64,000 bases of DNA, taken from contig DASXKU010000073.1 of assembly GCA_036496645.1 (NCBI GenBank), positions 539 through 64,538 on the forward strand. The letters run 5' to 3'. The notes beneath the pieces are model-generated. The model was given only the letters and a program-made list of their open reading frames with translations. It was not told the origin of the DNA and did not search any database. This document shows positions 4,330 to 64,000 of this stretch, piece after piece. A program made the translations under genes and the position numbers. This stretch comes from Gaiellaceae bacterium. GTDB taxonomy: Bacteria > Actinomycetota > Thermoleophilia > Gaiellales > Gaiellaceae. How positions within the stretch are numbered: the first letter of the stretch is position 1; every line of letters starts with the position of its first letter.

Positions 4330-4360
4330 AGGAAACGCGGCCCGCCGCGCTCTCTTTCAC

Positions 4361-31526: not shown

Positions 31527-32036
31527 GTGACCGGCATGCCCGCGTCGGGCAAGACGACGCTTGCGCGGCTGCTCGGCAAGCGGCTCTCGTTGCCGGTCAT
31601 CGAGAAGGACACGATCAAAGAGACACTGTTCGACACACTCGGTGCTCCTGATGTCGAGGCGTCGCAGCGACTCGGCCGAGCGACCTACGCGCTGATCTTC
31701 GCAACCGCGGACGCGCTGCTCGCCGCAGGAACGTCGCTCGTCGCGGAGGCGAATTTCTTCCGCGGCGCCGACGAGCCGAGGTTCGCTGCACTGCCGCCGC
31801 ATCGGGTGGTGCAGGTGCACTGCCACGCGCCACTGGATGTGCTGGTCGATCGCTACACCAACCGCCCCGCGCGACATGCCGGCCATCACGATTCGACGCG
31901 CGTCGACGAGTTGCGCGCACGCTACGACAGTGGCTCGAACGGGCCGCTCGACCTAGACGGCGAGCTGATCGAGCTCGATACAACGACAGCGCCTGCCGCT
32001 CAACTCGCAGCCGAGGTTGCCGAACGGCTAGCGTGA
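31527..32036 (+). CDS. P-loop kinase (AAA_33-like)
   Basis: Walker A GMPASGKT. The strand preceding the P-loop (PPLLLVV) lies upstream of the first canonical start (GTG 31527); only CTG 31500 would include it. Confidence 0.65.
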   Translation: MTGMPASGKTTLARLLGKRLSLPVIEKDTIKETLFDTLGAPDVEASQRLGRATYALIFATADALLAAGTSLVAEANFFRGADEPRFAALPPHRVVQVHCHAPLDVLVDRYTNRPARHAGHHDSTRVDELRARYDSGSNGPLDLDGELIELDTTTAPAAQLAAEVAERLA

Positions 32037-32116
32037 GCGCACCGGGGTGCCCGGCACTGGGCTGAGATCACACCCGTCGAACCTGATCCGGATCATGCCG
32101 GCGAAGGGAGTGCACG
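32037..32116 (+). promoter_or_regulatory. TPP (THI-box) riboswitch
   Basis: Contains GGGGUGC...GGCUGAGA...ACCC...GAACCUGAUCCGGAUCAUGCCGGCGAAGGGA, with P1 closing GCAC/GUGC. Sits 35 nt upstream of the permease start. Confidence 0.9.
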
Positions 32117-32150
32117 ACTGAAAGACACACCGAACTGGGGCATCACGCCT

Positions 32151-35067: not shown

Positions 35068-35697
35068 CTAGCGGGCCTTTCGTCGTTGAGCGTCAGGTTT
35101 GATCAGCAATGCATCGATCTGCACCGGATAACCGGCGCGCAACACGCCGAGAGTTGAGGGCGGCGTGATCGCCTCGGCCGTCCCGCTTCGCGGACGTGCA
35201 CGGCTCTCGCCGTAGCCGCCTATCGACCACTCGACAACCTCGTCGCCAAGTACAAGCGTCGGCGCGCCATCGAGACGCACGAATGCCCCGTCTGGCAGCT
35301 CGCGCCACGGGACGCGGTGAAAGCGCCGCTGATGCGTGCCGCGCACGATGCGCTCGGAGTGCAGCTGCTTGTTCATGTCGGTCGAGCTTGGATTGCCGCC
35401 GAAGGCATCGCGATACGCGTTGTACGACGCGCGTCGGCACTCACCGCACGGCCGGTGCCCAGCCGCGAAGGCGACGGCTTCGTCGTGGAAGTACAGCCAG
35501 GTGAAGCCGCGCGGCTTCCACTGCTCGTGCCAGCGGTCGTTGAACGCGAGCGCGCAGACGATCCAGAGGTTGCCCGCGTGGAAGCGAACGATCTCGTGAC
35601 CTTCATGCAAGCGTCCGCGATTGCCCGTCCACGCACCGCGCAATGGAATCGCGACAACGTCGCCGAGGGGTGTGACGCGGTTCTGTGCCGGGCTCAC
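35068..35697 (-). CDS. conserved hypothetical protein (209 aa) with HRPCGECRR motif
   Basis: GTG 35697 overlaps the stop of the upstream permease (GTGA). Only the C-terminal 209 aa of track ORF 35068-36279 look protein-like. Confidence 0.65.
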   Translation of the reverse strand: MSPAQNRVTPLGDVVAIPLRGAWTGNRGRLHEGHEIVRFHAGNLWIVCALAFNDRWHEQWKPRGFTWLYFHDEAVAFAAGHRPCGECRRASYNAYRDAFGGNPSSTDMNKQLHSERIVRGTHQRRFHRVPWRELPDGAFVRLDGAPTLVLGDEVVEWSIGGYGESRARPRSGTAEAITPPSTLGVLRAGYPVQIDALLIKPDAQRRKAR

Positions 35698-36806
35698 ACG
35701 ACGACCGGCTCGATGCCGGCCGTGCTGCGAGTCCGAGTCACCGAGCCGACGCGCGGATCGATGATCGCGTAGAGCACGTCGACGAGGAGATTTCCGACGA
35801 TCACGATCAGCGTGATCATCGTCACGATGCCGAGGACGACGGGTAGGTCGAGGACACTGCTGCCTGCGAAGGTGAAGACCGCGTCGGTCGCGAGCCCGTG
35901 CAGACCGAAGGCTGCCTCGATGTACACCGCGATGCCAATCGCCGTGCCGATCTCCATGCCGATCATCGTCAGGATGCGTAGCCCTGCGTATGGCAGTACG
36001 TGACGTCCGATCACGCGCGGCTCGCCGGCGCCCTTCGAGCGCGCAGTGCGAACGAAGTCGTCGTGCATCACTTCGAGCACGCTCGCGCGTGCCATGCGTG
36101 TGTAGAGCGCGAGGAATAGCAATGCGAACGAGACCCAGGGCAGGATCAGATGCTCGAACCACGGCCACGGCCCTCCGGCGCAGGCGCTGGGGCTGGCTGA
36201 CGAAAAGAAGGGGTTGAAGCTGCTGCTGATGGGAACCGCGTGGTGTCCGAAGGTGCAGTAGCCGCCGTCGGGGAGCCACTTGTGCTGGTCGCCAAAGAAC
36301 GTGCGGAGGATCAGGCCGATCACCATCGGGTGCGTACAGATTGCGATCAGCGTCAGGAAGCCAATCAGCCTGTCGCCGATCGACCCTGCGTAGCGCGCGG
36401 CAAACGCGCCGAGCGGCAACGCTAGTAACAACACGAGCGCGGCCCCGCCGAGGAGCAAGGAAAGCGTGATTCGCGTCTCGCGGATGATGCGGTCGTTGAT
36501 CGGCACCTGCGTCACCGACTGGTCGGCGTTGATGTGCGTGCCGTTCCAGTCTTTGCCGAAGTCACCTTCTGCGAGGTGCTCGACGTACTTCGCCCATTGC
36601 ACGTACTTCGGCTTGTCGAGCCCGAAGACGTGATTGCCGCGCTGAATCTGGTAATTCGAAAGGTGTTGCGCAAACGGATAGAGGTACTGCGCCGGTGGCG
36701 TCGCCGGGATCGCCCAGAAGAGCACGAACGTCAGCGTGATCACGAGGAGCAGCGTGAACACGCTCGCGACGAGCCTGCGCGTAAGGAAATACGCGAGACG
36801 CCTCAT
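35694..36806 (-). CDS. ABC transporter permease, DppB/OppB-like
   Basis: BPD_transp_1 pattern, including the EAA-loop region (DFVRTARSKGAGEPRVIGRHVLP). Paralogue of 58338-59396. Confidence 0.85.
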   Translation of the reverse strand: MRRLAYFLTRRLVASVFTLLLVITLTFVLFWAIPATPPAQYLYPFAQHLSNYQIQRGNHVFGLDKPKYVQWAKYVEHLAEGDFGKDWNGTHINADQSVTQVPINDRIIRETRITLSLLLGGAALVLLLALPLGAFAARYAGSIGDRLIGFLTLIAICTHPMVIGLILRTFFGDQHKWLPDGGYCTFGHHAVPISSSFNPFFSSASPSACAGGPWPWFEHLILPWVSFALLFLALYTRMARASVLEVMHDDFVRTARSKGAGEPRVIGRHVLPYAGLRILTMIGMEIGTAIGIAVYIEAAFGLHGLATDAVFTFAGSSVLDLPVVLGIVTMITLIVIVGNLLVDVLYAIIDPRVGSVTRTRSTAGIEPVVV

Positions 36807-37810
36807 AGCTCGCGTGGCGCCAGCGCGCGCCGCGCCCCTTCACTCACGCGGTTGAGCGACACGACGGCGATGAGGATCGCCAGCGTCGGGAAGATGGTGA
36901 GCCACACCGTGAATGCCTGCGCGTTGTAGGTATGCGGCGAGTAAATCGTCCCCCATGTCGTCACGAGCATCGAGCCCCACGTCGTCGTCGTCAGCGGAAC
37001 GCCGGCGCCGATAAAGCTCAGGCCGACCTCGAGCAGAATGTTCGTGCCTACGGCAACCGCACCCCACACGAGCAATGTCGGCAGGAGGTGCGGCACCAGA
37101 TGACGCCAGATGATCCGGCGGTTGGACGCGCCGATCATCCGCTCGGCTTCGACAAACTCGGCATGGCGGAGCGTCAGCATCTGCGCGCGAATGAGTCGCA
37201 GTGGATAGAACGACGTGAAGATTCCGATCGTGAGCGCTACCTCGAGCACACCCGGCGGCAGCACGTGTTTGATCGAGATCGGCTCGAGCGTCGGCCGGAG
37301 GCGCACGCTGACGAGGACCAGGAGCAGAATCAGCGGGAACGCCATGACGAGCTCCGTGATACGGCTGATGATCGCGTCGAGCCAACGCCCGTAGAAGCCC
37401 GCCAGCACACCAAGCGGAAGTCCAACGGCAAGTGCGACAAGCACGCCGCCGAGGCCGATCTCGAGCGACGCCTTACCGCCGTCGAGCAACCGGATGAACT
37501 CGTCGCGACCAACCTCGCTATCCGCGCCGAGAACGAAAAGCGTGCGCTTCGCGTGCTTCGGCGGCGGCGCTATCGAGTTGTCGGGCAGGCTCAACGCTTG
37601 GTTGACAGCCGGGACGTGCGACCACGGCCCGACCGGCCTCAGGTTCTCGTTCACGGAGTACGGGAATAGATCCGACCCGTCGTGGTTAAGCAGCGTGCTC
37701 GCAATCGGGCCGCCCGCGAGGGACGCGACGACCACGATCAGCAGCACAAGGCCGGCGACGACCGACCCGCGATCGCGCAGAAACCGCCGCAGAGTTGGAC
37801 GATTCCTCAC
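36803..37810 (-). CDS. ABC transporter permease, DppC/OppC-like
   Basis: GTG 37810 overlaps the PhzF-like stop (GTGA). EAA region (EFVEAERMIGASNRRIIWRHLVP). Paralogue of 57316-58341. Confidence 0.85.
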   Translation of the reverse strand: MRNRPTLRRFLRDRGSVVAGLVLLIVVVASLAGGPIASTLLNHDGSDLFPYSVNENLRPVGPWSHVPAVNQALSLPDNSIAPPPKHAKRTLFVLGADSEVGRDEFIRLLDGGKASLEIGLGGVLVALAVGLPLGVLAGFYGRWLDAIISRITELVMAFPLILLLVLVSVRLRPTLEPISIKHVLPPGVLEVALTIGIFTSFYPLRLIRAQMLTLRHAEFVEAERMIGASNRRIIWRHLVPHLLPTLLVWGAVAVGTNILLEVGLSFIGAGVPLTTTTWGSMLVTTWGTIYSPHTYNAQAFTVWLTIFPTLAILIAVVSLNRVSEGARRALAPREL

Positions 37811-38655
37811 GGGAGCGTGAATTCGCCTCGCGCAACGATGACGGCGGACCCACCGACGCGGACGCGCTCGAGGTTGTCCGCTGTTCCCTCGGCTACGGCG
37901 TACAGCGTCGACGGCCGGCCGATCTCGGTGCCCTGCGAGATCTCGATCTCTTCCCCGAACGCGATCCGGCCGTGCCGCGCAAGGTGCACGGCGAGCGGCC
38001 CCGCAGCCGAACCGGTCGCCGGATCCTCGTTCACGCCGTCGCCGGGCGCGAACATTCGCGTCTTCCAATGCTTCGCGTCGCGGGCGAACGTGTTGACGCC
38101 GTCTGCGCTCGCGCGCTGGAGCGCGTTGAAGTCCGGCCGGAGAGCAGCGACCGCCTCGGCCGATTCGAGCTCGACGTACGTGTGGCCCGGCCCGAGGTCA
38201 TAGCTCTCAACCGGCAGCGAAGATCCCTTGACTCCAAGCGCCGCCACGATCTCATCGACGTTGGAAACAGGTTTCCAGTTAGGGAGCGGCTGCTCCATCC
38301 ACCCGAAGACGATGCGCGGACCTTCGCGCTCAAGCTCGACCGGGACGACACCGGCACCAGTTTCGAGGCGAATCACGATCTTGGAAAGCGGGCCGCCGAG
38401 CACGAAAGCGCTGCCGAGTGTCGGGTGCCCGGCGAACGGGAGCTCCACCGCCGGCGTGAAGATACGGATGCGGACGTCGGCGTCGTCCACGGTTGCGGGC
38501 AGCACGAAGACGGTCTCCGAGAGGTTCGTCTCCCGCGCCAGCGACTGCATCTCCTCGCCGGTCAGATCGCGGCCGTCCGTGAAGACGGCCAGCTGGTTCC
38601 CGGCGAGAGGGACACTTGTGAAGACGTCGCAGACCGTGTACCGGAATTTGCGCAT
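37807..38655 (-). CDS. PhzF-family isomerase
   Basis: 282 aa. DVFT near the N-terminus, SETVFV, FAGHPTLG and EDPATGSAAGPL. Confidence 0.9.
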   Translation of the reverse strand: MRKFRYTVCDVFTSVPLAGNQLAVFTDGRDLTGEEMQSLARETNLSETVFVLPATVDDADVRIRIFTPAVELPFAGHPTLGSAFVLGGPLSKIVIRLETGAGVVPVELEREGPRIVFGWMEQPLPNWKPVSNVDEIVAALGVKGSSLPVESYDLGPGHTYVELESAEAVAALRPDFNALQRASADGVNTFARDAKHWKTRMFAPGDGVNEDPATGSAAGPLAVHLARHGRIAFGEEIEISQGTEIGRPSTLYAVAEGTADNLERVRVGGSAVIVARGEFTLP

Positions 38656-52595: not shown

Positions 52596-52667
52596 GCCCC
52601 CGTAGCTCAGTGGATAGAGCAGCGGTTTCCTAAACCGCGTGCGCGTGTTCGACTCACGCCGGGGGCA
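52596..52667 (+). tRNA. tRNA-Arg (anticodon CCT)
   Basis: Hand-folded cloverleaf. Acceptor GCCCCCG/CGGGGGC, D arm GCTC/GAGC, anticodon stem GCGGT/ACCGC with loop TTCCTAA, T arm GCGTG-TTCGACT-CACGC, discriminator A. No encoded CCA. Confidence 0.9.
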
Positions 52668-52759: not shown

Positions 52760-53686
52760 GTGCAGGTGATGCCTAACTCGACCGCGCCGGATGTTGCGGT
52801 TGTTCGCGCCGATTCGCTAGTGAAGCGCTTCGGCAGCGTTGTCGCGGTCGACCACTTGTCGTTCGCGCTCGCGCCGGGAACGATCACCGGCTTCCTCGGC
52901 CCGAACGGGGCGGGGAAGACAACCACGTTGCGCATGCTGCTGGGACTTGCCATGCCTAACAGCGGAAATGCGCTTGTCTTCGGACAACCGTACGCGGAGA
53001 TCGAACAGCCGGCGCGGCGGATCGGCGCGGTGCTCGAAGCAACCGACTTTCACCCGGGCCGATCTGGGCGCGACCACCTCAACACGCTCGCCGCGGCAGC
53101 CGAGATGCCGCGCTCTCGCGTCGAAGAAGTGTTGCAGCTGGTCGAACTCGCGAGCGCCGCCAGTCGGCGCGTCAAGGGCTACTCGCTCGGCATGCGTCAG
53201 CGGCTTGGTCTCGCCGCGGCGCTGCTCGGCGACCCCGAACTGCTGATCCTCGACGAGCCGGCAAATGGTCTCGACCCCGAAGGAGTGCGCTGGCTGCGCG
53301 ACTTCCTCCGCGCCTTCGCCGCCGAGCAGCGCACAGTGCTTATCTCGAGCCACGTACTCGCCGAGGTCGCGCAGACTGTCGACCAGGTCCTGATCGTCAA
53401 CCGCGGCAAGCTCGTCGTCGAGTCCTCACTGGCACAACTGACCGCCCATGTCGGCGGCTCCATCCGCGTCCGCACCCCCGAGCCGGATAAGCTCGCGACA
53501 GCGCTGGCACAGGCGGGAATCAACGCGACAGCGAGCAACGACCATGGCTTGCTCGTGCACGGAACGACGAGCGAGCGCGTCGGCGATGTCGCCTTCGCCG
53601 CCCTCGTACCCATCCATGAGTTGGTGGCCGAGGGCTCCTCGCTCGAACAGGTCTTCCTCGAACTGACCGCGGAGCCCGACGCGTGA
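52760..53686 (+). CDS. ABC transporter ATP-binding protein (ABC-2 type)
   Basis: Walker A GPNGAGKTT, signature YSLGMRQR, Walker B LLILDEP. Start may be GTG 52760, GTG 52766 or ATG 52769. Confidence 0.9.
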   Translation: MQVMPNSTAPDVAVVRADSLVKRFGSVVAVDHLSFALAPGTITGFLGPNGAGKTTTLRMLLGLAMPNSGNALVFGQPYAEIEQPARRIGAVLEATDFHPGRSGRDHLNTLAAAAEMPRSRVEEVLQLVELASAASRRVKGYSLGMRQRLGLAAALLGDPELLILDEPANGLDPEGVRWLRDFLRAFAAEQRTVLISSHVLAEVAQTVDQVLIVNRGKLVVESSLAQLTAHVGGSIRVRTPEPDKLATALAQAGINATASNDHGLLVHGTTSERVGDVAFAALVPIHELVAEGSSLEQVFLELTAEPDA

Positions 53687-54417
53687 TCGCGCAGCTCAAA
53701 GCCGAACTACTGAAGATCCGCTCGACACGCACGACCGTTGGGATCGTGCTCGGCATGATCGCCCTCATCGTTCTCTTCTCACTGCTCTCTGGATTGCTGA
53801 CGAAGGCAGCGGGCCTCGGGAGCACCGAAGACCAGCGCGGCCTGCTCAGTGTGGGTAGCCTCGCCGGCGTCTTCTCTGCGCTCGCGGGGATCATGCTCGT
53901 GACCAGCGAGTACCGCTTCGGCACGATCCGTCCCACCTTTCTCTTCACACCCAAACGCTCGCGCGTGATCGGCGCCAAGCTCGCCGCAGGCCTGCTCGCC
54001 GGAGTCCTCTTCGGCGTCGCCGGCGAGGGGCTCGGCTTCGCAATCGGCTACGCAGCCCTCGCCGGCCGGGGCATCGACTACGCCCTCAACGCCGACCAGA
54101 CGATGCTGCTCCTACTCGGAACAACGGCCGGGGTCGCACTCTGGGGCGCAATCGGAGTGGGCGTCGGCGTCATCGTCCGCAACCAGGTCGGAGCGATCAT
54201 CGGCCTGCTCGCCTGGGGCTTCGTCGCCGAAAACCTTCTCTTTGCTTTTGTCCCAACCGTCGGCCGCTTCGCGCCGTCGCACGACTCTGACGCCCTCATG
54301 GGACTCACCACCAAACACCTCCTTCCCGCCGCCGCAGGCGGCGCCGTCCTGCTCGCCTGGACGGTCGCACTCGCACTCATTGCCATCGCACTAGCCGCAC
54401 GCCGCGACGTCACCTAA
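53683..54417 (+). CDS. ABC-2 family transporter permease
   Basis: Six hydrophobic helices. The start overlaps the ATPase stop. Confidence 0.85.
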   Translation: MIAQLKAELLKIRSTRTTVGIVLGMIALIVLFSLLSGLLTKAAGLGSTEDQRGLLSVGSLAGVFSALAGIMLVTSEYRFGTIRPTFLFTPKRSRVIGAKLAAGLLAGVLFGVAGEGLGFAIGYAALAGRGIDYALNADQTMLLLLGTTAGVALWGAIGVGVGVIVRNQVGAIIGLLAWGFVAENLLFAFVPTVGRFAPSHDSDALMGLTTKHLLPAAAGGAVLLAWTVALALIAIALAARRDVT

Positions 54418-54521: not shown

Positions 54522-54920
54522 CTAGCCGGGCAGCGTGATCCTGGTTGGCGGATCTCCCCAGTGGCCATTCAGCCAGAAGTGTTCGATCGAGTAATGCCCC
54601 TCGTAGAAGCACAGCCGGTCGGCCGTAATGAACTTCTTTCCCCTTGGCCCGTTGACGACGTAGAGCGGGTACTGCCAGCAGCTGCCAACGACTTTCACCG
54701 GCTTGCCAACCAGCTGCCGCACCTGTTTGGGCGTCATCCCGAAGATAACTTTGGAAGCGTTCTCCGCGTAGCGGATCGACGCGGGGCTCGCGACGACCGC
54801 GGGCGACGGCCCACCGTGGTGTGAAGGCCAAGTCAGCAGTACGCCTGCCACCGCGAGTATCGCCAGCAGCATGACCGCAATGCCGATGCCTCCAAGTCGA
54901 CGACTGGCGCGGGGACCCAC
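54522..54920 (-). CDS. membrane-anchored small protein with SmpA/OmlA (BamE)-like motif
   Basis: N-terminal TM helix (IGIAVMLLAILAVAGVLL), then GMTPKQVRQLVGKP...GSCWQY. Paralogue of 56847-57305. Confidence 0.65.
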   Translation of the reverse strand: MGPRASRRLGGIGIAVMLLAILAVAGVLLTWPSHHGGPSPAVVASPASIRYAENASKVIFGMTPKQVRQLVGKPVKVVGSCWQYPLYVVNGPRGKKFITADRLCFYEGHYSIEHFWLNGHWGDPPTRITLPG

Positions 54921-54945
54921 CTAGAAGGGAGCCTTGCCGGCGTCG

Positions 54946-54976
54946 AAACCTTTATCGAGCGTGCGAGTAAAGGTTT
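54946..54976. promoter_or_regulatory. AT-rich inverted repeat AAACCTTTA-N13-TAAAGGTTT
   Basis: Perfect 9-bp arms in the divergent region between 54920 and 55047. Confidence 0.4.
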
Positions 54977-55046
54977 GCAGCGGATTTGGACTCTCTCTTC
55001 CAATCGCTCGATAATCCTCTCGTCGTAACTGGGGGTCGGTAAGCGA

Positions 55047-55523
55047 ATGTCGGTGTCAAAGGCAGCGCTCGAGAAGCTCTATCGCGAGCGATACGCAGGA
55101 TTTCGGCGTGCACTGACACCCGTCGCGGGAAGCTACGACGCAGCGCACGATGTTGTGCAGGAGTCATTCGCCCGCGCACTGACAAACAGACGGCAATGCC
55201 GCGACGAGGCGACGATCGCAGGTTGGGTGTGGCGCATCGCCTGGAACGTCGCGTTGGAACGTCGCAGCCCTGGACATGAGGTTCCGTTCGAAGAGGCGTT
55301 CGTCGCAACGTTGGTCGAGCCAGCCGACGACCCCGAGCTCGAGCGCGCGCTCACCGCGCTGCCACCACGCAGGCGCCTGATCTTTTTCCTTCGCTACTTC
55401 GCCGACTTCAGCTACGCGGAGATTGCGACGGCATGCGAGATCAGCGAGGGGACAGTGGCGGCTGCACTCGCGCGTGCGCGCGCCGAGCTCGGAGCGGCAA
55501 TCGAATCGAGGGCGAATCGATGA
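55047..55523 (+). CDS. ECF-type RNA polymerase sigma factor (short)
   Basis: Paralogue of 4361-4816 (AGWVWRIAWNVAL; LPPRRRLIFFLRYFADFSYAEIATACEISEGTVAAAL). Confidence 0.85.
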   Translation: MSVSKAALEKLYRERYAGFRRALTPVAGSYDAAHDVVQESFARALTNRRQCRDEATIAGWVWRIAWNVALERRSPGHEVPFEEAFVATLVEPADDPELERALTALPPRRRLIFFLRYFADFSYAEIATACEISEGTVAAALARARAELGAAIESRANR

Positions 55524-56269
55524 GCGCACGTCCGTCGGCCCACGAGCTCGACCCCGACCTGCGCGATCGTCTGCTCGCTCTCGACGAACCCGTAGCGCAT
55601 CCCAACTGGCAGGACGTCGTGTCGCGGTCGGGTGCAGAGCGGCCGCGGCGAACAGCCGTCCGAGCAACACTCGTCCTTGTCGTCGCATGCGCCGCAGCGA
55701 TTGCGGTCGCGCCTGCGATGGGCCTTCGACTCGGCCCCCTCAACATCAACTTCTGGAGTTCTCCGCACGCGCCGCCGTCGGCTCAGTCGGCGTTCACCGA
55801 AGCTAAGTCGTGGCTCGGCGACGCGAACCTTCGAGGGCTCGATTTCTCGCAGAGCCGCCGTATCTTCGTCGAGGTGTTCCGCGGCGATACCGAGCGCCTA
55901 TTCGTGGCACCGCGCACCGCCGGCGGATTCTGTTACGTCTGGGCGACCCAGCCGGGGAATCCGGGTGTCTGGGCGGACGAGCTCGGCGGCTGCGCGGTGC
56001 ACGCCCAGGCGCTCTATCTGGGGTACGACGACACCCGAATCAGCATCGTCGCGAACCGACGCCTTGTCGACCACGTCGACGTGGAACTCGACAACGGCAA
56101 GACGGTAGAGGCGAACCTGCGCTGGGTTTCGGCTCCGGTCAACGCCGGGTTCGTTCTCTATCAGGCGCCAAGCCACACGCACGCGCTCGCGGTGGTGGCG
56201 ATCGGCCCGAACGGCGTCGTCCAATCGGATCCAATCGCTCAGCAGATCTACGCGGTTCCGACGCGATGA
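55520..56269 (+). CDS. sigma-coupled single-pass membrane protein (putative minimal anti-sigma factor)
   Basis: ATGA overlap with the sigma gene. About 45 cytoplasmic residues, a TM helix (ATLVLVVACAAAIAVAPA), and an outside domain shared with 56266-56850. Confidence 0.65.
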   Translation: MSARPSAHELDPDLRDRLLALDEPVAHPNWQDVVSRSGAERPRRTAVRATLVLVVACAAAIAVAPAMGLRLGPLNINFWSSPHAPPSAQSAFTEAKSWLGDANLRGLDFSQSRRIFVEVFRGDTERLFVAPRTAGGFCYVWATQPGNPGVWADELGGCAVHAQALYLGYDDTRISIVANRRLVDHVDVELDNGKTVEANLRWVSAPVNAGFVLYQAPSHTHALAVVAIGPNGVVQSDPIAQQIYAVPTR

Positions 56270-56850
56270 CGCGCGCACCGGTCTTGATCGTGCTCGTCGG
56301 ATTCCTCGCGCTCGCAGGAGTGGGCTTCCGCGCCGCACCGTCGAGCGGCATCATCAATTTCGCGTCTGCTCCGCGCGCGCCGCAGTCTGCTCGATCGACG
56401 TTTACGCGCAACACGCTCTTGCCGAAGTCGATCGTGCGCCGGCTGAAGCTGAGTCAGACGCGCCGCGTTGCGACCGAGGTCTTTCCCGGCATGAGCGAGC
56501 GGCTGTTCGTGGCCCCGGCTACCCGCGGCGACTACTGCTACGAGTGGGTCTCGGCGCTCGGCAGCACCTGGCTGGCCGAGTTCAGCGCCTGCGACGTTCG
56601 TACCCGGCCGATGGTCGTGGGATACGACGACACGCGGATCAGCATCATGGCCAACAAGGCGCTCGTCGAAGTCGTTCGCGCGAAATTGAGTAATGGAAGC
56701 GAAGCGCAGCTCGCGCTTCACTGGGTGTCGGCTCCGATCAGCGCCGGCTTCCTTCTCTACCAGCCGCCAAAGGGACTTCAAGTCACTCAGATCGAGGCGC
56801 TCAAAGGCACAAGCGTCGTCGAGACCGATCCGATCACCGCAATCCCGTGA
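56266..56850 (+). CDS. secreted/membrane-anchored paralogue of the 55520 outside domain
   Basis: ATGA overlap. N-terminal hydrophobic helix. Shared blocks ERLFVAP.T.G.(F/Y)CY.W, GYDDTRISI.AN and L.WVSAP...GF.LYQ.P. Confidence 0.65.
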   Translation: MTRAPVLIVLVGFLALAGVGFRAAPSSGIINFASAPRAPQSARSTFTRNTLLPKSIVRRLKLSQTRRVATEVFPGMSERLFVAPATRGDYCYEWVSALGSTWLAEFSACDVRTRPMVVGYDDTRISIMANKALVEVVRAKLSNGSEAQLALHWVSAPISAGFLLYQPPKGLQVTQIEALKGTSVVETDPITAIP

Positions 56851-57305
56851 CTCGAGCGCCGTCCTTCATCAGGAACATGGGCCCGCGTGCCAGAAGGCGG
56901 TTCGCCTGGTTGAGCGTCGTCGTCCTGGCGGCGATCGGCATCGGCGGCTACTACGCCGCAACGTCGGGCGGGAACGCACCGAAACATGACGCGCTCCCGA
57001 ATCCCACGATGAACCTGGGAATCTCCTACGGCTGGACACCGCAGCAAGTCGTTCATCAAATCGGGCAGCCGACAAGCAAGAAAGGGAGCTGCTGGATCTA
57101 CGACTCGCCGACTCGTCACGTTGCCGGCATCTACGCAGGTTCGTACACCGACAAGGTCAGGTTCTGCTTCCTGGCTGGCGTCGTCTCTGACGAAAAGGAC
57201 CACGAGATCGCGTACACATGGCACAACGTCCGCCACCCCGCGCAGTGGATCGTCCCGCTGACGTTCAGGCCGTCGTACGAGACGATCCCCGGGCTGAAGT
57301 TCTAG
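56847..57305 (+). CDS. membrane-anchored small protein with SmpA/OmlA (BamE)-like motif
   Basis: GTGA overlap. TM helix (FAWLSVVVLAAIGIGGYYA), then GWTPQQVVHQIGQP...GSCWIY and RFCF. Confidence 0.65.
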   Translation: MTRAPSFIRNMGPRARRRFAWLSVVVLAAIGIGGYYAATSGGNAPKHDALPNPTMNLGISYGWTPQQVVHQIGQPTSKKGSCWIYDSPTRHVAGIYAGSYTDKVRFCFLAGVVSDEKDHEIAYTWHNVRHPAQWIVPLTFRPSYETIPGLKF

Positions 57306-57315
57306 GCCCAGTCGG

Positions 57316-58341
57316 TTGCAGACCCGCTCTCCCTGGAAGCTTGCCTTCAGCCGCTTCCGCCGCGACCGGTTGTCGTTTGCCGCAGGCTGCGTCTTCGCCT
57401 TCATCGTGATCGTGTCGTTCGCCGGTGGTGCAACGGCGAGCGCGCTGCTGCATCACAACGGCACCGACATTTTCCCGTACGCAGCCAACGACAACCAGAA
57501 GCCGGTCGGACCGTGGACACGCGTCCCGGCAAAACATGGTTCCTACGGCTACTCGAACGGCGACCTCACGCCGCCGCCGAAAGGCGCCCCCACGACGCTG
57601 CTCATCTTTGGCGCCGACGGCGCGCTCGGCCGAGACGAGTTCATCCGGGTCGTCGACGGCGGTAAGGCCTCGCTCGAGATCGCGATCGGCGGAGTTCTGA
57701 TCGCGCTGTTGATCGGACTACCACTCGGCGCCATCTCCGGTTACTTCGGAGGAGTCACAGACACGCTCGTCTCGCGAGTCACGGAAACGGTGATGTCGTT
57801 CCCGCTGTTGCTCTTTCTCGTGTTCGCGAGCGTCAACCTCGACTACACCCTGAAACCGATCGGCGCGTGGGGATCGATCATTCCGGAAGGCGTGGTCGCC
57901 GAAGCGGTGCTGATCGGGGTCTTCACATCTTTCTATCCGACGCGTCTCGTACGAGCGCGGCTGCTGACGCTCCGGCGCGAAGAGTTCGTCGAAGCAGCGG
58001 AGATGGTCGGCGCTTCACACTGGCGGATCCTCCGCCACCACCTGCTGCCACATCTGCGACCAACGCTTCTCGTGTGGGCGGCAGTCGCGACCGCTACGAA
58101 CATCCTGCTCGAGGTCGGGCTCAGCTTCATCGGCGCAGGCGTACAACCGGAGACGCCGACGTGGGGCTCGCTGCTCTCGACGACGTGGGGAACGATCTAT
58201 CAGCCTCAGCTCTTCACGAGCGTGAGCTTCACGGTCTGGCAGACCATCTTCCCGACGGCTGCGATCTTGCTCTGCGTCCTCTCCCTCAACCAGCTGTCCG
58301 AGGGACTCCGCCACGCCCTCGAACCGCAGGCTGACCGATGA
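57316..58341 (+). CDS. ABC transporter permease, DppC/OppC-like
   Basis: TTG start 10 nt after the upstream stop. EAA region (EFVEAAEMVGASHWRILRHHLLP). Confidence 0.85.
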   Translation: MQTRSPWKLAFSRFRRDRLSFAAGCVFAFIVIVSFAGGATASALLHHNGTDIFPYAANDNQKPVGPWTRVPAKHGSYGYSNGDLTPPPKGAPTTLLIFGADGALGRDEFIRVVDGGKASLEIAIGGVLIALLIGLPLGAISGYFGGVTDTLVSRVTETVMSFPLLLFLVFASVNLDYTLKPIGAWGSIIPEGVVAEAVLIGVFTSFYPTRLVRARLLTLRREEFVEAAEMVGASHWRILRHHLLPHLRPTLLVWAAVATATNILLEVGLSFIGAGVQPETPTWGSLLSTTWGTIYQPQLFTSVSFTVWQTIFPTAAILLCVLSLNQLSEGLRHALEPQADR

Positions 58342-59396
58342 GCAGAATCGTCTCCTTCCTGATTCGTCGCGCCATCGCCGGAGTGTTCACCGTCTGGGTG
58401 ATGTTCACCTTCGCGTTCGTCGTCTTCTGGTCGATCCCGAGCCAGCCCGCGAATTTCGTCTACCCCGGCCGCCAGCACCTCACCGACTACCAAATCCAAC
58501 AAGCCGATCACATCCTCGGCATCGACCGGCCCAAGCTCACGCAGTACTACGACTACGTGTGGCACGTCCTGCATTGGAAGTTCGGCCGGTCATGGGGGGA
58601 TTACGCCTTCAATCCGGGCTTGCCGAGCGGAATCCACTACCCGGACGTCTCGAGCGAACTGTCGCGGGAGATCGGCGTCACGCTTTCGATCACGCTTGGT
58701 GGTGCGCTGTTCGTGCTGTTGCTTTCCGTTCCGCTCGGCGCCATTGCGGGCAGCCATCTGCGCTCACTCAGCGACCGCACGATCTCGTTGGTCGCGCTGA
58801 TCGGTGTCTGCACACACCCGATGGTGATCGCGCTCATCCTGCGCGGCATCTTCGGCGAGCACCTGCACTGGGTGCCGCCAACCGGCTACTGCCCGCTTCG
58901 GCAAAGCGGATACCCGGGTTGCGACGGCGTTCGCGATTGGGCGAGCCACCTCATCCTGCCGTGGACCACGTTCACATTGCTTTTTCTCGCGCTCTACATC
59001 CGCATGATCAGAGCGAGCGTCGCGGAAACGCTCCCGGAGGACTTCGTGCGCACCGCGCGTTCCAAAGGCGCTAGCGAGCTGCGCGTGATGGCCCGCCACG
59101 TTCTGCCCAACGCGTCACTGCGCGTGTTGACGATGGTCGGCATGGAAATCGGAACCGCAATCGCCGTCTGCGCATACATCGAAACCGCGTTCGGCATGCA
59201 AGGTCTCGGACTGGCCGGCATCCAGGCGATGCTCGGCCTCGACTTGCCGGAGATCCTCGGCGTCGTCACGGCGATCACGCTGATCGTCGTCCTCGGCAAC
59301 CTGATCGTCGACGGCCTCTACGCGTTCATCGACCCGCGCGTTCGCTTCACTGTCGACAACAATCGGACAAAGAGTCTCGCCGGCGGCGTCATATGA
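58338..59396 (+). CDS. ABC transporter permease, DppB/OppB-like
   Basis: ATGA overlap. EAA region (DFVRTARSKGASELRVMARHVLP). Confidence 0.85.
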   Translation: MSRIVSFLIRRAIAGVFTVWVMFTFAFVVFWSIPSQPANFVYPGRQHLTDYQIQQADHILGIDRPKLTQYYDYVWHVLHWKFGRSWGDYAFNPGLPSGIHYPDVSSELSREIGVTLSITLGGALFVLLLSVPLGAIAGSHLRSLSDRTISLVALIGVCTHPMVIALILRGIFGEHLHWVPPTGYCPLRQSGYPGCDGVRDWASHLILPWTTFTLLFLALYIRMIRASVAETLPEDFVRTARSKGASELRVMARHVLPNASLRVLTMVGMEIGTAIAVCAYIETAFGMQGLGLAGIQAMLGLDLPEILGVVTAITLIVVLGNLIVDGLYAFIDPRVRFTVDNNRTKSLAGGVI

Positions 59397-59437: not shown

Positions 59438-59466
59438 TTGACAGTAGTTTTGCGATAGCGGATAGT
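59438..59466 (+). promoter_or_regulatory. sigma-70-like promoter TTGACA-N17-GATAGT, placed for a leaderless mRNA
   Basis: -35 at 59438-59443 and -10 at 59461-59466. The GTG start codon is at 59473, 7 nt after the -10. Confidence 0.5.
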
Positions 59467-59472
59467 CGGGGC

Positions 59473-60525
59473 GTGACCATCGTGATGGAAGAGTTCACCA
59501 CCGGTGAGCCCTCCTCTGATCAGCAGATCGCCGAGGCGTTTGGCGAGAACACGCCCCGCTCTGCCTGGCGCATCCTGGGACGAAACAAGGCGCGCGTCGT
59601 CTATGGCCTGCTTCGAGAAGCTGAGAACGGTGACCTCGGGACGAAGCGGCTACTTGAAGCAACACTGATTCGCGAGTGTGTGTATCGCGCCGTTTCAGCT
59701 GCGTCCAACAAATATCGCGACCCGCGACAGCGACTGATGGACTGGTTCTCGGGAGCTGCAATCGAGACGACGTGGTCGGAGCTGCATCAGGCCGAGCAGC
59801 GGCTGTTGCTCGTGCAGCCGGTGGCCGCGGTTCAGAGCCGAGTCGACGACATCCTTGCCGCACTCAAGAGCAACCTCAAAGCCGATGATGCGCGACTGGC
59901 CCCGGCAACAACGCGCCTGACCGCGCTGCGGGGAGCAACGCACGACAAGATCGACGAAGCGCGCGAAGAGCTGCGCACGTATCAACAATGGGCCGACGAC
60001 GCCGGCGACGAAGCGCACGCGAACGTTCGCAGCTTGCGCAACCTGCTGATCGCGATCGGCGGCTGCGTCGTGGTCGTGCTCGTCGTGCTCGGAACGTTGA
60101 ACTGGGTGAGCTCGGGCTTCCTCAATCTCAGCGGACCTACGACCTCGAGCAAACACAGCATCGGCGTCTGGGAGATCGAAGCAATCGCGGCGCTCGGCGG
60201 CATGATCGCCGCGATCTTCACGATCGCGAAGCTCGGTGGCTTCGGCGGCCCGTACCGCTTGCCTGTCTACCAGGCGCTCATTCGCGTTCCGGCCGGCGCC
60301 GCCGTTGGGCTCGCCGCAGTGACACTGACTCAGAGCGGATTGATCACAGCGCTTAAGCCAGAGAGCGGCCTCGGTGTGCTGGCCGTCGCACTGATCTTCG
60401 GCTACTCGCCAGACGTATTCCTTCGCTTCATCGATCAGAAAGCAGCGACCCTGCTCGGGCAAGCGCAGTCCAAAGACGACCCAAGCGCGACCTCGCCGGT
60501 TGCTTCGACATCCGCCGGCAGCTGA
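59473..60525 (+). CDS. hypothetical membrane protein: ~190-aa helical cytoplasmic domain + 4 TM helices
   Basis: Clean 350-aa frame. TM segments LLIAIGGCVVVVLVVLGTL, IEAIAALGGMIAAIFTIAKL, VPAGAAVGLAAVTLTQSGLI and GVLAVALIFGYSP. No family recognised. Confidence 0.7.
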   Translation: MTIVMEEFTTGEPSSDQQIAEAFGENTPRSAWRILGRNKARVVYGLLREAENGDLGTKRLLEATLIRECVYRAVSAASNKYRDPRQRLMDWFSGAAIETTWSELHQAEQRLLLVQPVAAVQSRVDDILAALKSNLKADDARLAPATTRLTALRGATHDKIDEAREELRTYQQWADDAGDEAHANVRSLRNLLIAIGGCVVVVLVVLGTLNWVSSGFLNLSGPTTSSKHSIGVWEIEAIAALGGMIAAIFTIAKLGGFGGPYRLPVYQALIRVPAGAAVGLAAVTLTQSGLITALKPESGLGVLAVALIFGYSPDVFLRFIDQKAATLLGQAQSKDDPSATSPVASTSAGS

Positions 60526-60591: not shown

Positions 60592-63500
60592 TCACCTACT
60601 GATGAGCGTTATCCGCCGTGTGAAGGTGGTGCTGTCGGCGGTGCTCACGGTCAACGTCGCAAGGATCGACTTGTGTCCCTTGAGCAGGTTCTCGCCCTTC
60701 TTCGTCAGGTGCAGCGTGACGACCGAAGCGTGCCCGGTCGAGAGCAGAGCGGTGCCGAGCGCGACGCGAACCGGACCGTGAGCGCCGCGCACATCCAGAT
60801 CGAGGACTGAGCGACAGCGTCCGCCGCCGCAGCGGACGGGAATGCTCACGTCGCCCTTGCGCGTCACGGTGAGTCGAATCGAGCGCAACGTCAGCTGCGG
60901 ACCGCCAAGCAGCGTCGCGTGTTGTGCCGGTCCGGCCACCAGCGCCCCGCTGGTGGGGCGCACCGTGACCACACCGCCGAAGTCGTGAGCGACCCGCGTG
61001 AACGTCGCTTGCTTCTTCGTCGTGCGCACCCGGAGATTCAGACCGGCGCTCGTGGTGAGCTGAACGTCGTAGCTCGCGCGCGGCCCGCTGCTCGCCCATG
61101 TGACCTTGACGGTGCTGCCCTGCCGGCGCACGCGCAGGTTGCGCACCAGCGGCCGTTGCGGCTTCGGCGCCTGGAACGTCGCGGCGTGGACGATCTGCCG
61201 CTGCACACCGTGCTCGAGCACAACCACGATCAGGTTGCGCTTGCCGGCGCGTCCGTCGACGGGACTGAAGCTCAGGCGACCGGACGTCTTTGCCGTGCGC
61301 AGGATCACGTGCTCGCCGCCGGCGCCCGACTCCTCGAACACGAGGCTCTGTCCGGCGACCTTGGCAGCGCCCCAAGAAAGGATGCGCGTTCGGCCCGTGC
61401 CGGTCACGCGCGCCTGGACGTTCGGCATCGGCAGGCCCGAGGCACTCTCGACGGAACGGAGCGGTGGCGAGCCGGCTTCGAGCGTGACGTGGTACGCACC
61501 GGTTCCAGGCTTGGCGATCGACACCGTTGTCACGTTGGTGCGGGCGTCAGGCAGCACGAGGAAGCCATGCTTCGCGTCGACGGTTGGCTTGCCCGCCTGC
61601 GTCGACACGCTCCGGCCATCCGGCCCGGAGATGCTGACGAGCGGCGGGCCGCCCGTCCCGACGAACTTGACGACGGCGAACTGCTTACCGGCCGGGAAGG
61701 TGAGGTCCGGGACCGCTACGGCGGACGCGGCTTCTCTGCGTGGGGCTGCCAAGTCGAACTTGTGCTCGTAGTCGGAGACCGAGCAGGCGCCGTTGTCCGC
61801 ACCGACGCCGTAGAAGGTCAGGTTCTTGCCGATGCTGTCCGTCGAGATGCTCGTTCCTGCAGAGCCCCACTTCTCGCCGGCGCCGACGGAGAGCGCACCG
61901 AACGGCGTGGTCAGTGAGCCGCAGAACGCGATGCCGTCGCTCGAGATCGCCGTGTCCGCCTCGGCCCCGAACACGGTGAGGCACGCGAACCGCAGCTTGA
62001 CGCCGAGGTCGCCTTCGAGGTTGAAGTCGTTGCCTTGGAATGCACCGGCGATCGTCCCACCCGCGGTGACGCCGAACGCCCGGTCGCTCTGACCGGGGCA
62101 ATCACCAACGGTGAGGTCGGCGTTGATGCCGGCCTTGAACGCGACGAACGGCTGCGAGAGACCGTAGTAGTCGACATCGGCGTCTGCGATCGGAATCAGG
62201 CCGAGCAGCGACGCTTCACCATGCACCTTCAACGTGAACGGGGACTGAATCTCCTTGCCGGCCGTCACTCCCGGAATACCGCTCGGCAGCTCCTCCTGGC
62301 TGTTGATCGCGAGATAGACACTGGCTTCGACATCAAGAGCGGAGAACTTGCCGATCTCCGGGCCGACGTCCATGCCGATGTCGCCCTGCAGATGGAAAGG
62401 TTTGTCGCCGAGCTCGGCGCCGATCGAGTTGATGACGACACCGGACGCGCCAAGAGGGATCTCGATGCCGTGCACTGCGACCCCGAGCCCGGTCAACTCG
62501 TCGCCGGTGATCTCGATCGAAGCGTCGATCCCCTTGTCGCCTGCGAAGACGCCCGCTCCGGGAAGCTTGAGCTCCGCCTCGCCCTCCCACTTCGTGCCCT
62601 CCTCGTGGGTCAGCGAGAGACTCGGCATCTCGATCGGCCCGAGATTGAAGGCGGTGCTCGCCTTCAACGTCGGTTCCTCGACCGTCCCGTCTTTGTCGAC
62701 GTCGAGGATGGTCTGCAGACCGGCGTCCGATCCGAAGATCGCCGGCATCCCGATCAGCGTCGTCACCTCGGTGCCGCCGTCGTCCTGCGGCGAAACGACG
62801 GTCGCGCCGGCGATCGGGAATCCGAACACGGCGGCGTCCGCGCTGACTTGATTCGCTGCGAGGATGAAGTGACTGTCACTCCCATCGAAGACGACGCTCA
62901 GCGGAGCTTCGTTCGTGGAGTAGAGCGAGGTCGTGCCGACCGCGATGTTCTCGGCCCCGCTCGTCGAGAGCGTGTTGGTGTGAATGTTGATCGACACCGT
63001 GCCGGTGCTTGACGCGGGCGTGAACGCCATGCCGTTGATCGAGAGCGTGCCGATGCCCTTGTACGTCGAGGTTCCGTCGGGGAGGTCGCCGGCCGGCGTT
63101 GCGCCCAGCCAGCAGCCGCTGACGGTGAACTGCGTGTTCGGGATCGTCTGCTCGTCGACTTGCTCCGCACCGGCCGGGCACTTCCCGCCGAGCGTGTCCA
63201 CGTCGACGGGAGTTCCCTGCCGGTCGCTGCCGACGAGGTTGAACACGTAGCGCGTGCCCGGATCGAGGCCGTCCACTGCCGCCGTGTAGTCCTCGTGCGT
63301 GAGCTCGTCGGCACCCGGATACGACTCGACGGTTTTGATCGTGGTCGTGTTGTCCGGATGATCGACCGGGTAGTAGATGAAGTGGTACGGCCCAGCGCCG
63401 GACGCGATGCCGTGCAGCGTCGCCGAAATTCGGGTGATTTCGGTCGCCGGCTCGGTCGAGACGAAACCGCCGGTCGTGAACGACACGATCCCCGTCTGCA

Positions 63501-64000
63501 GCCAGTTCTGGGCGCCGGAGCCGACAGTCTGTTGGAACCGCACCACCGCGTAGTACGTCGTGCCCGGCTGCAGGTTGCGCAAGTTCACGGTGTACTGCGA
63601 AACGAGCTGGTCGGAGGGCACCGGCTGGAACGCCGTCGTCGTCTTCGACTGAAACGCCTGGTCGAACTCGTTCTGCGCGAACTGTGCCTGCGTCACCGCA
63701 TCGACGCGAAACTCGGCGCCCTTCTCGAGGCCAACGTTCTCAACGTCGACCTGGAGCGTGGCTCCGACCGCCGCCGCCAATTGAACGTCGATCGATCCGT
63801 CCGGCCTCGTCGTCGTGAAGGTCTGATCGCCGCCGTAGACGACCGTGCCGTCCGCGTACTCGGCCCCCGCCCGGTAGTGGTACGTCGTGTTGGCGTTGAG
63901 GCCCGTCGCCTGGAGATCGACCGGGGTCGGATCAGACGTCGCAGCGACCTGATCGGTCGAGTCGACCTGGTTGCCGTAGGCGCTCGTGAGCCCGTACTGG
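60592..64000 (-). CDS. very large secreted/surface protein with FN3-like and Ig-like repeats (5' end outside window)
   Basis: The frame stays open from 63780 to the window edge (hand translation ...YHYRAGAEYADGTVVYGGDQTFTTT...). Has repeated FN3-like blocks (PGTTYYAVVRF, PGTRYVFNLV) and beta-rich Ig-like C-terminal modules. Confidence 0.8.
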   Translation of the reverse strand, partial: QYGLTSAYGNQVDSTDQVAATSDPTPVDLQATGLNANTTYHYRAGAEYADGTVVYGGDQTFTTTRPDGSIDVQLAAAVGATLQVDVENVGLEKGAEFRVDAVTQAQFAQNEFDQAFQSKTTTAFQPVPSDQLVSQYTVNLRNLQPGTTYYAVVRFQQTVGSGAQNWLQTGIVSFTTGGFVSTEPATEITRISATLHGIASGAGPYHFIYYPVDHPDNTTTIKTVESYPGADELTHEDYTAAVDGLDPGTRYVFNLVGSDRQGTPVDVDTLGGKCPAGAEQVDEQTIPNTQFTVSGCWLGATPAGDLPDGTSTYKGIGTLSINGMAFTPASSTGTVSINIHTNTLSTSGAENIAVGTTSLYSTNEAPLSVVFDGSDSHFILAANQVSADAAVFGFPIAGATVVSPQDDGGTEVTTLIGMPAIFGSDAGLQTILDVDKDGTVEEPTLKASTAFNLGPIEMPSLSLTHEEGTKWEGEAELKLPGAGVFAGDKGIDASIEITGDELTGLGVAVHGIEIPLGASGVVINSIGAELGDKPFHLQGDIGMDVGPEIGKFSALDVEASVYLAINSQEELPSGIPGVTAGKEIQSPFTLKVHGEASLLGLIPIADADVDYYGLSQPFVAFKAGINADLTVGDCPGQSDRAFGVTAGGTIAGAFQGNDFNLEGDLGVKLRFACLTVFGAEADTAISSDGIAFCGSLTTPFGALSVGAGEKWGSAGTSISTDSIGKNLTFYGVGADNGACSVSDYEHKFDLAAPRREAASAVAVPDLTFPAGKQFAVVKFVGTGGPPLVSISGPDGRSVSTQAGKPTVDAKHGFLVLPDARTNVTTVSIAKPGTGAYHVTLEAGSPPLRSVESASGLPMPNVQARVTGTGRTRILSWGAAKVAGQSLVFEESGAGGEHVILRTAKTSGRLSFSPVDGRAGKRNLIVVVLEHGVQRQIVHAATFQAPKPQRPLVRNLRVRRQGSTVKVTWASSGPRASYDVQLTTSAGLNLRVRTTKKQATFTRVAHDFGGVVTVRPTSGALVAGPAQHATLLGGPQLTLRSIRLTVTRKGDVSIPVRCGGGRCRSVLDLDVRGAHGPVRVALGTALLSTGHASVVTLHLTKKGENLLKGHKSILATLTVSTADSTTFTRRITLISR

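Follow-up and report, generated by a model that had tools for sequence, protein, structure and literature searches.

A 64-kb stretch of DNA from a Gaiellaceae bacterium (64,000 nucleotides, called the window here) holds, at positions 54522–59396, a divergent gene, A, and six co-directional, mostly overlapping genes, B–G. In order, the six encode an extracytoplasmic function (ECF) sigma factor, a presumed anti-sigma factor (C), a relative of the latter's outside domain (D), a small anchored protein (E) and two membrane subunits of a peptide-type ATP-binding cassette (ABC) importer. The linkage of sigma factor and permeases is conserved, and the permeases belong to a clade whose genes stand apart from those for binding proteins and Dpp-type ATPases. 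We favor, with a probability of roughly one in two, an autoregulated envelope-stress ECF sigma operon that carries the permease pair plus BamE/BLIP-like proteins as a fixed payload, the ATPases being encoded elsewhere. The genes are as follows.

54522–54920, minus strand: gene A, 132 residues, N-terminal membrane anchor and BamE/BLIP-like domain, divergent; GC content at third codon positions (GC3) 0.77.
55047–55523, plus strand: gene B, ECF sigma factor of 158 residues, regions 2 and 4 only (Pfam, NCBIfam).
55520–56269, plus strand: gene C, single-pass membrane protein of 249 residues, presumed anti-sigma factor; ATGA overlap with the sigma gene.
56266–56850, plus strand: gene D, 194-residue paralog of the outside domain of C.
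56847–57305, plus strand: gene E, anchored BamE/BLIP-like protein, 152 residues from GTG 56847 or 142 from the likelier ATG 56877.
57316–58341, plus strand: gene F, DppC/OppC-like ABC membrane subunit of 341 residues (OppC_N and BPD_transp_1).
58338–59396, plus strand: gene G, DppB-like ABC membrane subunit of 352 residues (BPD_transp_1_N and BPD_transp_1).

All seven open reading frames (ORFs) have coding-type GC3 values (0.71–0.84). The Joint Genome Institute (JGI) annotation of the source contig, made independently, agrees on these genes but makes A and E shorter at their starts. The composition and order of the cluster, first proposed in a sequence-only reading of the window, are borne out by the ORFs, by domain matches and by inspection of the sequence. 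So are most of the proposed junctions, namely the ATGA overlaps at 55520, 56266 and 58338 and the 10-nt gap before the TTG at 57316. The GTGA overlap at 56847 is doubtful: the family-conserved N terminus of E (MGPRxRRR) and the JGI call point to ATG 56877, a start that replaces the overlap with D by a 26-nt gap. Nor do terminators appear to split the permeases from the sigma genes, because terminator-like sites within the operon are at chance level (5 found, 4.1 expected from shuffling). Such tight chaining hard-wires the permeases to the sigma genes.

The same operon, consisting of a sigma factor, a single-pass partner and a DppC/DppB-like pair, is found on six independent contigs that stem from different samples and sequencing projects and differ in their flanking genes. 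Five of the six, all but L003, also carry a BamE/BLIP-like gene.

Window: A (divergent), then sigma, C, D, E, DppC, DppB.
L094, an ortholog that keeps all seven genes: sigma 85% identical, C 69%, D 66%, E 60%, F 89%, G 82%; A-like gene 54%, behind DppB.
L003: sigma, partner of 209 residues, DppC, DppB.
L004, first pair: A-like gene (divergent), then sigma, partner, A/E-like gene, DppC, DppB.
L091 and L092: sigma, partner, A/E-like gene, DppC, DppB.

Two of these contigs, L091 and L092, were reached from the A/E family of small proteins and not through the permeases or the sigma factor. The cluster genes of L093, which came from a metagenome search with an A/E sub-alignment, give BLAST results identical to those of L092. 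Identity among the clusters drops to about 61–66% for the permeases and about 35% for the sigma factors. Conservation of the neighborhood had been set beforehand as a test that could refute the linkage, and the linkage is retained on all six contigs. The adjacency of sigma/anti-sigma and permease genes could in principle be fortuitous, or an artifact of assembly, since the source is a metagenome-assembled contig. But the same order recurs in unrelated samples and projects, the 4-nt overlaps are seen directly in the sequence, and L094 retains all seven genes; conserved linkage of this kind excludes chance adjacency, and we consider this explanation scarcely credible.

Within the conserved frame, parts have been exchanged. 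The L003 sigma factor is of a different lineage (about 30% identical to the others), yet the L003 permeases are the nearest to those of the window after L094, evidence that modules have been swapped inside the cluster. Three unrelated types of outside domain occur among the anti-sigma factors: that of C and D; that of a second partner in the window (4813–5487), found also in L004; and that of L003, L091 and L092 (when L003 7792–8927 is compared with L091 8905–9997, the L003 outside domain is 43% identical to that of L091 and L092). In L094, the A-like gene (4547–4945) is not divergent upstream but lies directly behind the DppB-like gene with a 1-nt overlap, so the small protein has remained with the operon even though the gene order changed.

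That gene B encodes a short ECF sigma factor, as first read, is confirmed by its domains. Sigma70_r2 (28.2 bits, 1.7e-6) and Sigma70_r4_2 (64.8 bits, 5.5e-18) both match above cut-off, region 3 has no match, and the score against TIGR02937, sigma70-ECF (63.1 bits, cut-off 42.9), assigns the protein to the ECF (group IV) factors. Its best NCBIfam subfamily is SigE-fam_strep, at 85.7 bits, under the cut-off of 141.55.

In C, the partner, a cytoplasmic N terminus of about 43 residues leads into a transmembrane segment (44–72), beyond which lies an outside domain bearing two conserved cysteines. Pfam gave no match for C or for any of the three types of outside domain. The class I anti-sigma domain is a cytoplasmic four-helix domain of about 80–90 residues, often with an HxxxCxxC zinc motif. 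C falls outside this class (ASDI/ZAS), as it has only some 43 residues before the transmembrane segment, no match to RsiW or zf-HC2 and no HxxxCxxC. We presume that C is the anti-sigma factor on account of its position, its topology, a weak match to the NCBIfam "antisigma" model (E = 0.0032) and its conserved N-terminal motif, LR-RLLALDEPV--DW-DVV, which is common to a family of 374 representative clusters (E ≤ 1e-3).

D was proposed to be a secreted paralog of the outside domain of C, and the paralogy is upheld by 43–45% identity over about 180 residues (tblastn). It lacks the first ~45 residues of C, the putative cytoplasmic sigma-binding segment, and begins with a hydrophobic segment, possibly a signal peptide, possibly an anchor. 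AlphaFold, given C and D alone, models D as all-beta with a predicted local distance difference test score (pLDDT) of 64. Foldseek returned generic beta-sandwich matches alone, with template modeling (TM) scores of 0.2–0.3 and nothing specific, and a PDB profile search with C and D gave no matches. Among the loci compared, relatives of the C/D type were found only in the window and in L094.

The window contains a second sigma module:

4327–5487, plus strand: promoter-like motif (4327–4355), sigma gene (4361–4816) and single-pass partner (4813–5487), with no permeases behind.

The sequence-only reading had held that each component of the cluster has a paralog elsewhere in the window. This is so for the sigma factor (58% identity between B and 4361–4816), for the DppC-like subunit (58% between F and 36803–37810) and for the DppB-like subunit (49% between G and 35694–36806; all by tblastn). 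It is not so for the outside domain of the partner: the protein at 4813–5487 has no BLAST similarity to C, and its short N-terminal motif alone looks alike by eye.

Four promoter-like elements and an inverted repeat bear on how the operon might be controlled.

54926–54954, minus strand: TAAAGG-N17-CTCCCT, followed after 5 nt by the start codon of gene A (GTG 54920).
54946–54954 and 54968–54976: arms, 13 nt apart, of a 9-bp inverted repeat without mismatches, AAACCTTTA / TAAAGGTTT.
54968–54996, plus strand: TAAAGG-N17-CTCTCT, upstream of sigma gene B, candidate autoregulated ECF promoter.
54987–55015, plus strand: sigma-70-like candidate TGGACT-17-GATAAT, matching the consensus at just 9 of 12 positions; possible basal promoter.
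4327–4355, plus strand: further copy of the motif, 5 nt before the GTG (4361) of the sigma paralog.

The motif TAAAGG-N17-CTCYCT matches three times in the 64 kb, against 0.05 expected, a comparison in which the motif was derived from the very sites counted. These sites precede sigma gene B, its paralog and gene A; a relaxed search of the window gave no further ones, including before the second permease pair, E, F and H (the gene downstream of G). The palindrome reported between A and the sigma gene is real, being recovered as AAACCTTTA-N13-TAAAGGTTT by repeat search, and each arm forms the upstream box of one of the two divergent motifs. Presence of the motif before both sigma genes and gene A is the usual signature of ECF autoregulation, with the permeases inside the sigma transcription unit, and we treat TAAAGG-N17-CTCYCT as a candidate autoregulated ECF promoter. 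The spacing of the GTG, exactly 5 nt after the CTCYCT box, suggests that gene A and the sigma paralog are leaderless. L094 retains TAAAGA-N17-GTCTCT within otherwise diverged sequence, and has an ATAATC box at the place matching the sigma-70-like candidate. In L004, GAAACG-N16-CTCTCG precedes the sigma gene.

F and G, with two BPD_transp_1 subunits of DppB and DppC type above the Pfam cut-off, are membrane subunits of the PepT family. Against NCBIfam, F matches Opp4C (4.5e-59; 200 bits, cut-off 350) and G matches Opp2B (183 bits, cut-off 350), the other DppB/C, OppB/C, NikB/C and GsiC/D equivalogs scoring lower. The EAA coupling loop of F is intact (FVEAAEMVGASHWRILRHHLLP), as is that of G, with an invariant RTAR-KG...HVLP. 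Some 1,800 proteins in the collection searched are related to G, and the nearest named ones are all from Gaiellaceae. A contig search with the DppB-like alignment (pattern D[FY][VI]RTAR[AS]KG) was dominated by generic DppB (best identity 42%), with no clade members among the matches listed; it supplied the canonical controls, L008 and L010. A second pair lies in the window itself:

35694–37810, minus strand: DppC/DppB-like pair with no sigma factor, binding protein or ATPase.

It shares 4 nt with the tail of a gene (37807–38655) of the PhzF family (phenazine-biosynthesis-like isomerase), an unusual companion for permeases of the peptide type.

In a neighbor-joining tree of DppC plus DppB, made without bootstrap, the pairs that lack linked partners (hereafter, orphan pairs) are monophyletic with respect to the canonical ones and sit on a long branch. 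All of the sigma-linked pairs, together with the second pair of L004, form one subclade. Throughout the clade the EAA loops are kept in both subunits and the OppC motif GxDxxGRD is retained; conserved loop cysteines have been gained. The DppB-like subunit also carries a clade-specific C-terminal extension of ~15 residues ending in ...TKSLAGGVI. Of the 13 orphan pairs, 11 have it, L089 has a degenerate form and the second pair of the window has none; canonical Gaiellaceae DppB proteins have no such tail and end at ...DPRxR. MalG reaches into the dimer interface of MalK with its C-terminal tail, and by analogy the TKSLAGGVI tail could be an ATPase-recruiting peptide.

The claim that the locus encodes no energizing or binding subunit was examined in the window and in a sample of 13 permease pairs on 11 contigs (254 kb), these being long metagenomic contigs and thus non-random. 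In the 254 kb, three Gaiellaceae SBP_bac_5 queries gave no tblastn match to a family-5 binding protein, the remainder of each genome not being searched, and the Pfam tables of the sampled loci contain no SBP_bac_5. No Dpp-type (oligo_HPY) ATPase was found near the 13 pairs, again with the remaining genome not searched; DppD and DppF queries match at 20–38% identity, and these matches adjoin genes of other transporters and are of DrrA, MalK or TOBE_2 type where labeled. The window likewise contains no family-5 binding protein and no Dpp-type ATPase. Its three ABC ATPases are DrrA-like or MalK-like and lie beside other transporter genes. In the control L008, a canonical Gaiellaceae Dpp operon, SBP_bac_5, DppB, DppC and two oligo_HPY ATPases follow consecutively, and the other ABC operons within the sampled loci are complete. 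Thus, ABC genes are not generally scattered in these genomes, and orphan status is a property of the clade. Because both permeases keep the EAA loop, an ATPase partner is to be expected, and so "ATPase-less," as the sequence-only reading had it, describes the locus and not the machine: the permease complex probably has an unlinked ATPase rather than none.

Two nearer candidates for the missing partners were considered and rejected. The DrrA-like ATPase at 52760–53686 has its own ABC-2 permease and is not adjacent in L004, L091 or L092. A/E-type proteins or D as substitutes for a binding protein fail as a general answer, since 6 of 13 pairs (the second pair of the window, L006 and L087–L090) have no A/E-type gene nearby and the C/D type is known only in the window and L094.

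The long branch and the unlinked partners also invite the explanation that the pair has been re-purposed for export, flipping or scaffolding together with the BamE/BLIP-like proteins, with a non-Dpp ATPase or none. The clade is monophyletic, its 13 pairs are never linked to SBP_bac_5 or oligo_HPY ATPases, it has gained a near-invariant tail and conserved loop cysteines, and several paralogous pairs occur per genome (two in the 64-kb window, two in the 40-kb contig of L004). Yet canonical EAA loops and the OppC GxDxxGRD are kept, as in a working type I importer core, an M19 dipeptidase gene, directly behind the L089 pair and close to that of L006, fits peptide import, and positive evidence for another activity is absent. 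We therefore hold re-purposing to be quite improbable.

The two small proteins, A and E, are 31–32% identical (tblastn), and A has a single hydrophobic segment (residues 5–34). Their family, of 33 or more members, is marked by a membrane anchor at the N terminus, by the start GMTxxQVxxxLGxP and by a pair of invariant cysteines (CWxY ... RxCF). The family was collected with a profile of seven sequences, a single-sequence search with E having given two relatives; L095 contributes one A-type member standing alone. Whether these proteins are BamE-like, as had been proposed, depends on what is meant. Membership of the BamE family is not established: A scores 16.7 bits (E = 0.0064) against Pfam BamE (PF04355), below the gathering score of 23.2, E has no match, and a precomputed PF04355 match exists for 2 of the 33 family members. 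For the fold, the proposal fares better. Of 31 PDB matches to the family profile, 29 are BLIP or BamE (best E values 0.0025 for BLIP and 0.03 for BamE). The AlphaFold model of E (pLDDT 70, with blocks over residues 61–80 above 90) shows a helix and three strands, and in Foldseek it is matched best by BamE, OsmE and BLIP-like proteins (probability 0.99–0.8, E 0.01–0.3), with target TM-scores of just 0.40–0.45. A BamE/BLIP-like fold is thus a reasonable, if tentative, assignment. A and E have in common the GMTxxQVxxxLGxP start and a predicted helix-plus-three-strand core, the points of likeness to BamE, OsmE and BLIP; they differ from BamE in having a hydrophobic anchor in place of a lipobox (judged by eye) and two invariant cysteines. 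A role in the β-barrel assembly machinery (BAM) or outer-membrane protein assembly is not to be assumed.

These observations can be combined into a model in which the short cytoplasmic N terminus of C would tether the sigma factor to the membrane until the outside domain senses an envelope-side cue, whereupon the sigma factor would be released, a step that the decoy-like D may modulate. The freed sigma factor would activate TAAAGG-N17-CTCYCT promoters, one ahead of its own operon and one ahead of gene A on the other strand, giving more of both permeases and of A and E. The permeases would then join Dpp-type ATPases, and probably also a binding protein, encoded elsewhere, in the manner of MsiK and MceG sharing. 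Likely cargo would be peptides; cell-wall-derived peptides are speculation. The sequences themselves show the order of the genes, their domains, the conserved cluster, the orphan state of the clade, the intact coupling loops and the promoter-like motif held in common; we infer the binding of sigma factor to C, the signal, the use of the promoters, the partners in trans and the substrate.

Two further findings fit the model. First, outside the sigma-linked subclade, orphan pairs lie behind a GntR gene (L087, L088) or a regulator of helix-turn-helix–tetratricopeptide repeat (HTH-TPR) type (L090), and within it the second pair of L004, with two E-like genes flanking it, lies behind a two-component system; the same clade behind such varied regulators fits an inducible transporter. 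The genes upstream of other non-sigma pairs are SfLAP (L006) and PhzF (second pair of the window). Second, the dipeptidase genes beside the L089 pair and near the L006 pair are a hint of peptide cargo. In addition, the retention of EAA loops across the orphan clade argues for the ATPase partner that the model requires.

Several points weigh on the other side. No ATPase or binding protein has been identified for the pair, and their supply in trans is the step that we infer. A plain importer would leave two features unaccounted for: the KSLAGGVI tail and the small anchored envelope proteins that constantly accompany the sigma-linked subclade. The candidate promoter motif is unlike the common ECF consensus (AAC at -35, CGT at -10) and could instead be an operator for another regulator, and the pattern upstream of the L091 and L092 operons is different. 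Finally, the loci come from long metagenomic contigs and are not a random sample, and the permease tree lacks bootstrap support.

It is also possible to read the arrangement as transporter-coupled signaling, in which the permease pair and the anchored BamE/BLIP-like proteins are at once co-sensor and target and report flux or occupancy to the anti-sigma factor. Translational coupling of sensor-type and transporter genes would be in keeping with this, as would the persistence of the linkage through module swaps (the L003 sigma lineage; three outside-domain types with one permease subclade), the sister pair of L004 behind a two-component system with two E-like genes, the unlinked binding protein and ATPase, and a clade-specific cytoplasmic tail free for an additional interaction. 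However, direct evidence of contact between permease and anti-sigma factor is absent. The outside domains are unrelated among clusters, so contact would need the transmembrane helix or the short N terminus. Moreover, other members of the clade lie behind cytoplasmic regulators or none, the ATPase-coupling loops are retained, and a payload role fully accounts for co-transcription with an autoregulated sigma factor. The transporter-as-sensor reading is thus somewhat disfavored, and we think it rather unlikely to be correct.

Several described systems share parts of this arrangement. In FecI–FecR–FecA, as here, an ECF sigma factor and a single-pass anti-sigma factor are genetically tied to a transport component; the pair controls the transporter FecA, and the system is a precedent for a transporter acting as sensor with ECF output. 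FecR-clade ECF groups have been listed (PMC7826278). FecA is a TonB-dependent outer-membrane receptor with a signaling extension, whereas the locus has a cytoplasmic-membrane ABC heterodimer with a putative signaling role, and C, D, A, E and H have no Pfam matches to FecR, Plug or TonB_dep_Rec. On the boldest reading, which we hold to be rather unlikely, this Gaiellaceae-specific clade of heterodimers has lost its linkage to binding protein and ATPase and gained the KSLAGGVI tail, and one subclade, having become the fixed partner of ECF sigma/anti-sigma pairs and anchored BamE/BLIP-like proteins, would serve as a membrane co-sensor gating the anti-sigma factor, a cytoplasmic-membrane counterpart of FecA–FecR. 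In BceRS–BceAB, regulator and ABC transporter are encoded together, and the transporter is both sensor and target. Bce, however, combines a two-component system with an FtsX-type permease, which has a large extracellular domain, and the BceA ATPase; the locus has an ECF sigma factor, BPD_transp_1 permeases and no linked ATPase. The ECF groups ECF258 and ECF234, from Firmicutes, have ABC transporter genes conserved in their neighborhood, ECF258 with DUF4179 anti-sigma factors and ECF234 with no anti-sigma factor (PMC7826278). The locus resembles them in having ABC transporter genes near an ECF sigma factor, in a host from Gaiellaceae rather than Firmicutes.

For the transport side, the membrane subunits of DppABCDF and OppABCDF are of the same families as F and G, with EAA loops and pairing as C-then-B or B-then-C. 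The canonical systems differ in that SBP_bac_5 and oligo_HPY ATPases are linked to them (L008 in Gaiellaceae), as they are to none of the 13 orphan pairs; the orphan clade also scores far under the equivalog cut-offs of NCBIfam and has the extra DppB-like tail. Shared ATPases supplied in trans are familiar in actinobacteria, where MsiK serves sugar permeases and MceG/Mkl serves Mce/YrbE permeases. The term "shared ATPase" is used for Mce in PMC13492129. The MsiK and MceG operons, like the orphan pairs, encode membrane subunits without an ATPase. They still encode substrate-binding components, whereas the orphan clade, of the PepT family, has neither binding protein nor ATPase. By this analogy, MsiK and MceG are the best model for how the orphan pairs could be energized. 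We know of no shared-ATPase arrangement in the PepT (Dpp/Opp) family.

Transporter-coupled ECF signaling, ECF groups near ABC transporters and permease operons without an ATPase are all already known. The sequence-only reading had suggested that no system of this composition has been described; the literature that we searched agrees with it, holding no description of a PepT-type pair without both partners inside an ECF sigma/anti-sigma operon.

Gaiellaceae are abundant soil actinobacteria that are almost unstudied, and a conserved signaling operon in them is worth recording. Importers of the PepT family usually come as complete units of five genes. A large clade stripped of both binding protein and ATPase implies either shared ATPases for peptide-type importers, which, if true, would extend the MsiK/MceG principle, or a new use of the membrane core. 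A permease core that stays behind sigma/anti-sigma genes despite swaps of lineage and sensor is a clean case in which to ask whether an ABC importer can inform an anti-sigma factor; were co-sensing correct, it would be a new class of ABC-coupled ECF signaling. If the locus is a plain payload operon, the result is a useful annotation without a new principle. In addition, the locus supplies a candidate ECF promoter motif, spaced as for leaderless transcripts, and points to an uncharacterized family of presumed anti-sigma factors (~374 clusters).

Downstream of G lies one further gene on the same strand:

59473–60525, plus strand: gene H, membrane protein of 350 residues without a family, probably a neighbor outside the unit.

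No Pfam family was found for H, and it has its own sigma-70-like promoter, TTGACA-17-GATAGT (59438–59466). A gene of H-like size and place follows the permease pair of L002, whose DppB-like protein is identical, the two H-like genes being compared by size and position alone; no counterpart lies behind the pairs of L003, L004, L091, L092 or L094. Gene H is therefore probably a neighbor, not a member of the unit.

Some other features of the window and of the sampled contigs may be recorded.

60592–63999, minus strand: large ORF of >1,060 residues that leaves the window (1,170 residues on the source contig) and converges on the cluster; no Pfam match on record.
L087, 11527–13083: Cas1 gene, <500 bp downstream of the orphan permease pair on the opposite strand, amid unannotated genes.
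32033–32126, plus strand: thiamine pyrophosphate (TPP) riboswitch, exceeding the Rfam gathering score at 72 bits, directly upstream of an ORF of 439 residues (32151–33470).
52596–52667, plus strand: transfer RNA (tRNA) gene, Rfam tRNA 67 bits, just upstream of a DrrA-like ATPase/ABC-2 permease pair (52760–54417).

The ORF behind the riboswitch looks strongly hydrophobic and may encode a transporter of thiamine or a thiamine precursor. The DrrA-like ATPase/ABC-2 permease pair behind the tRNA gene also neighbors the permease cluster of L003, at 81–84% identity.

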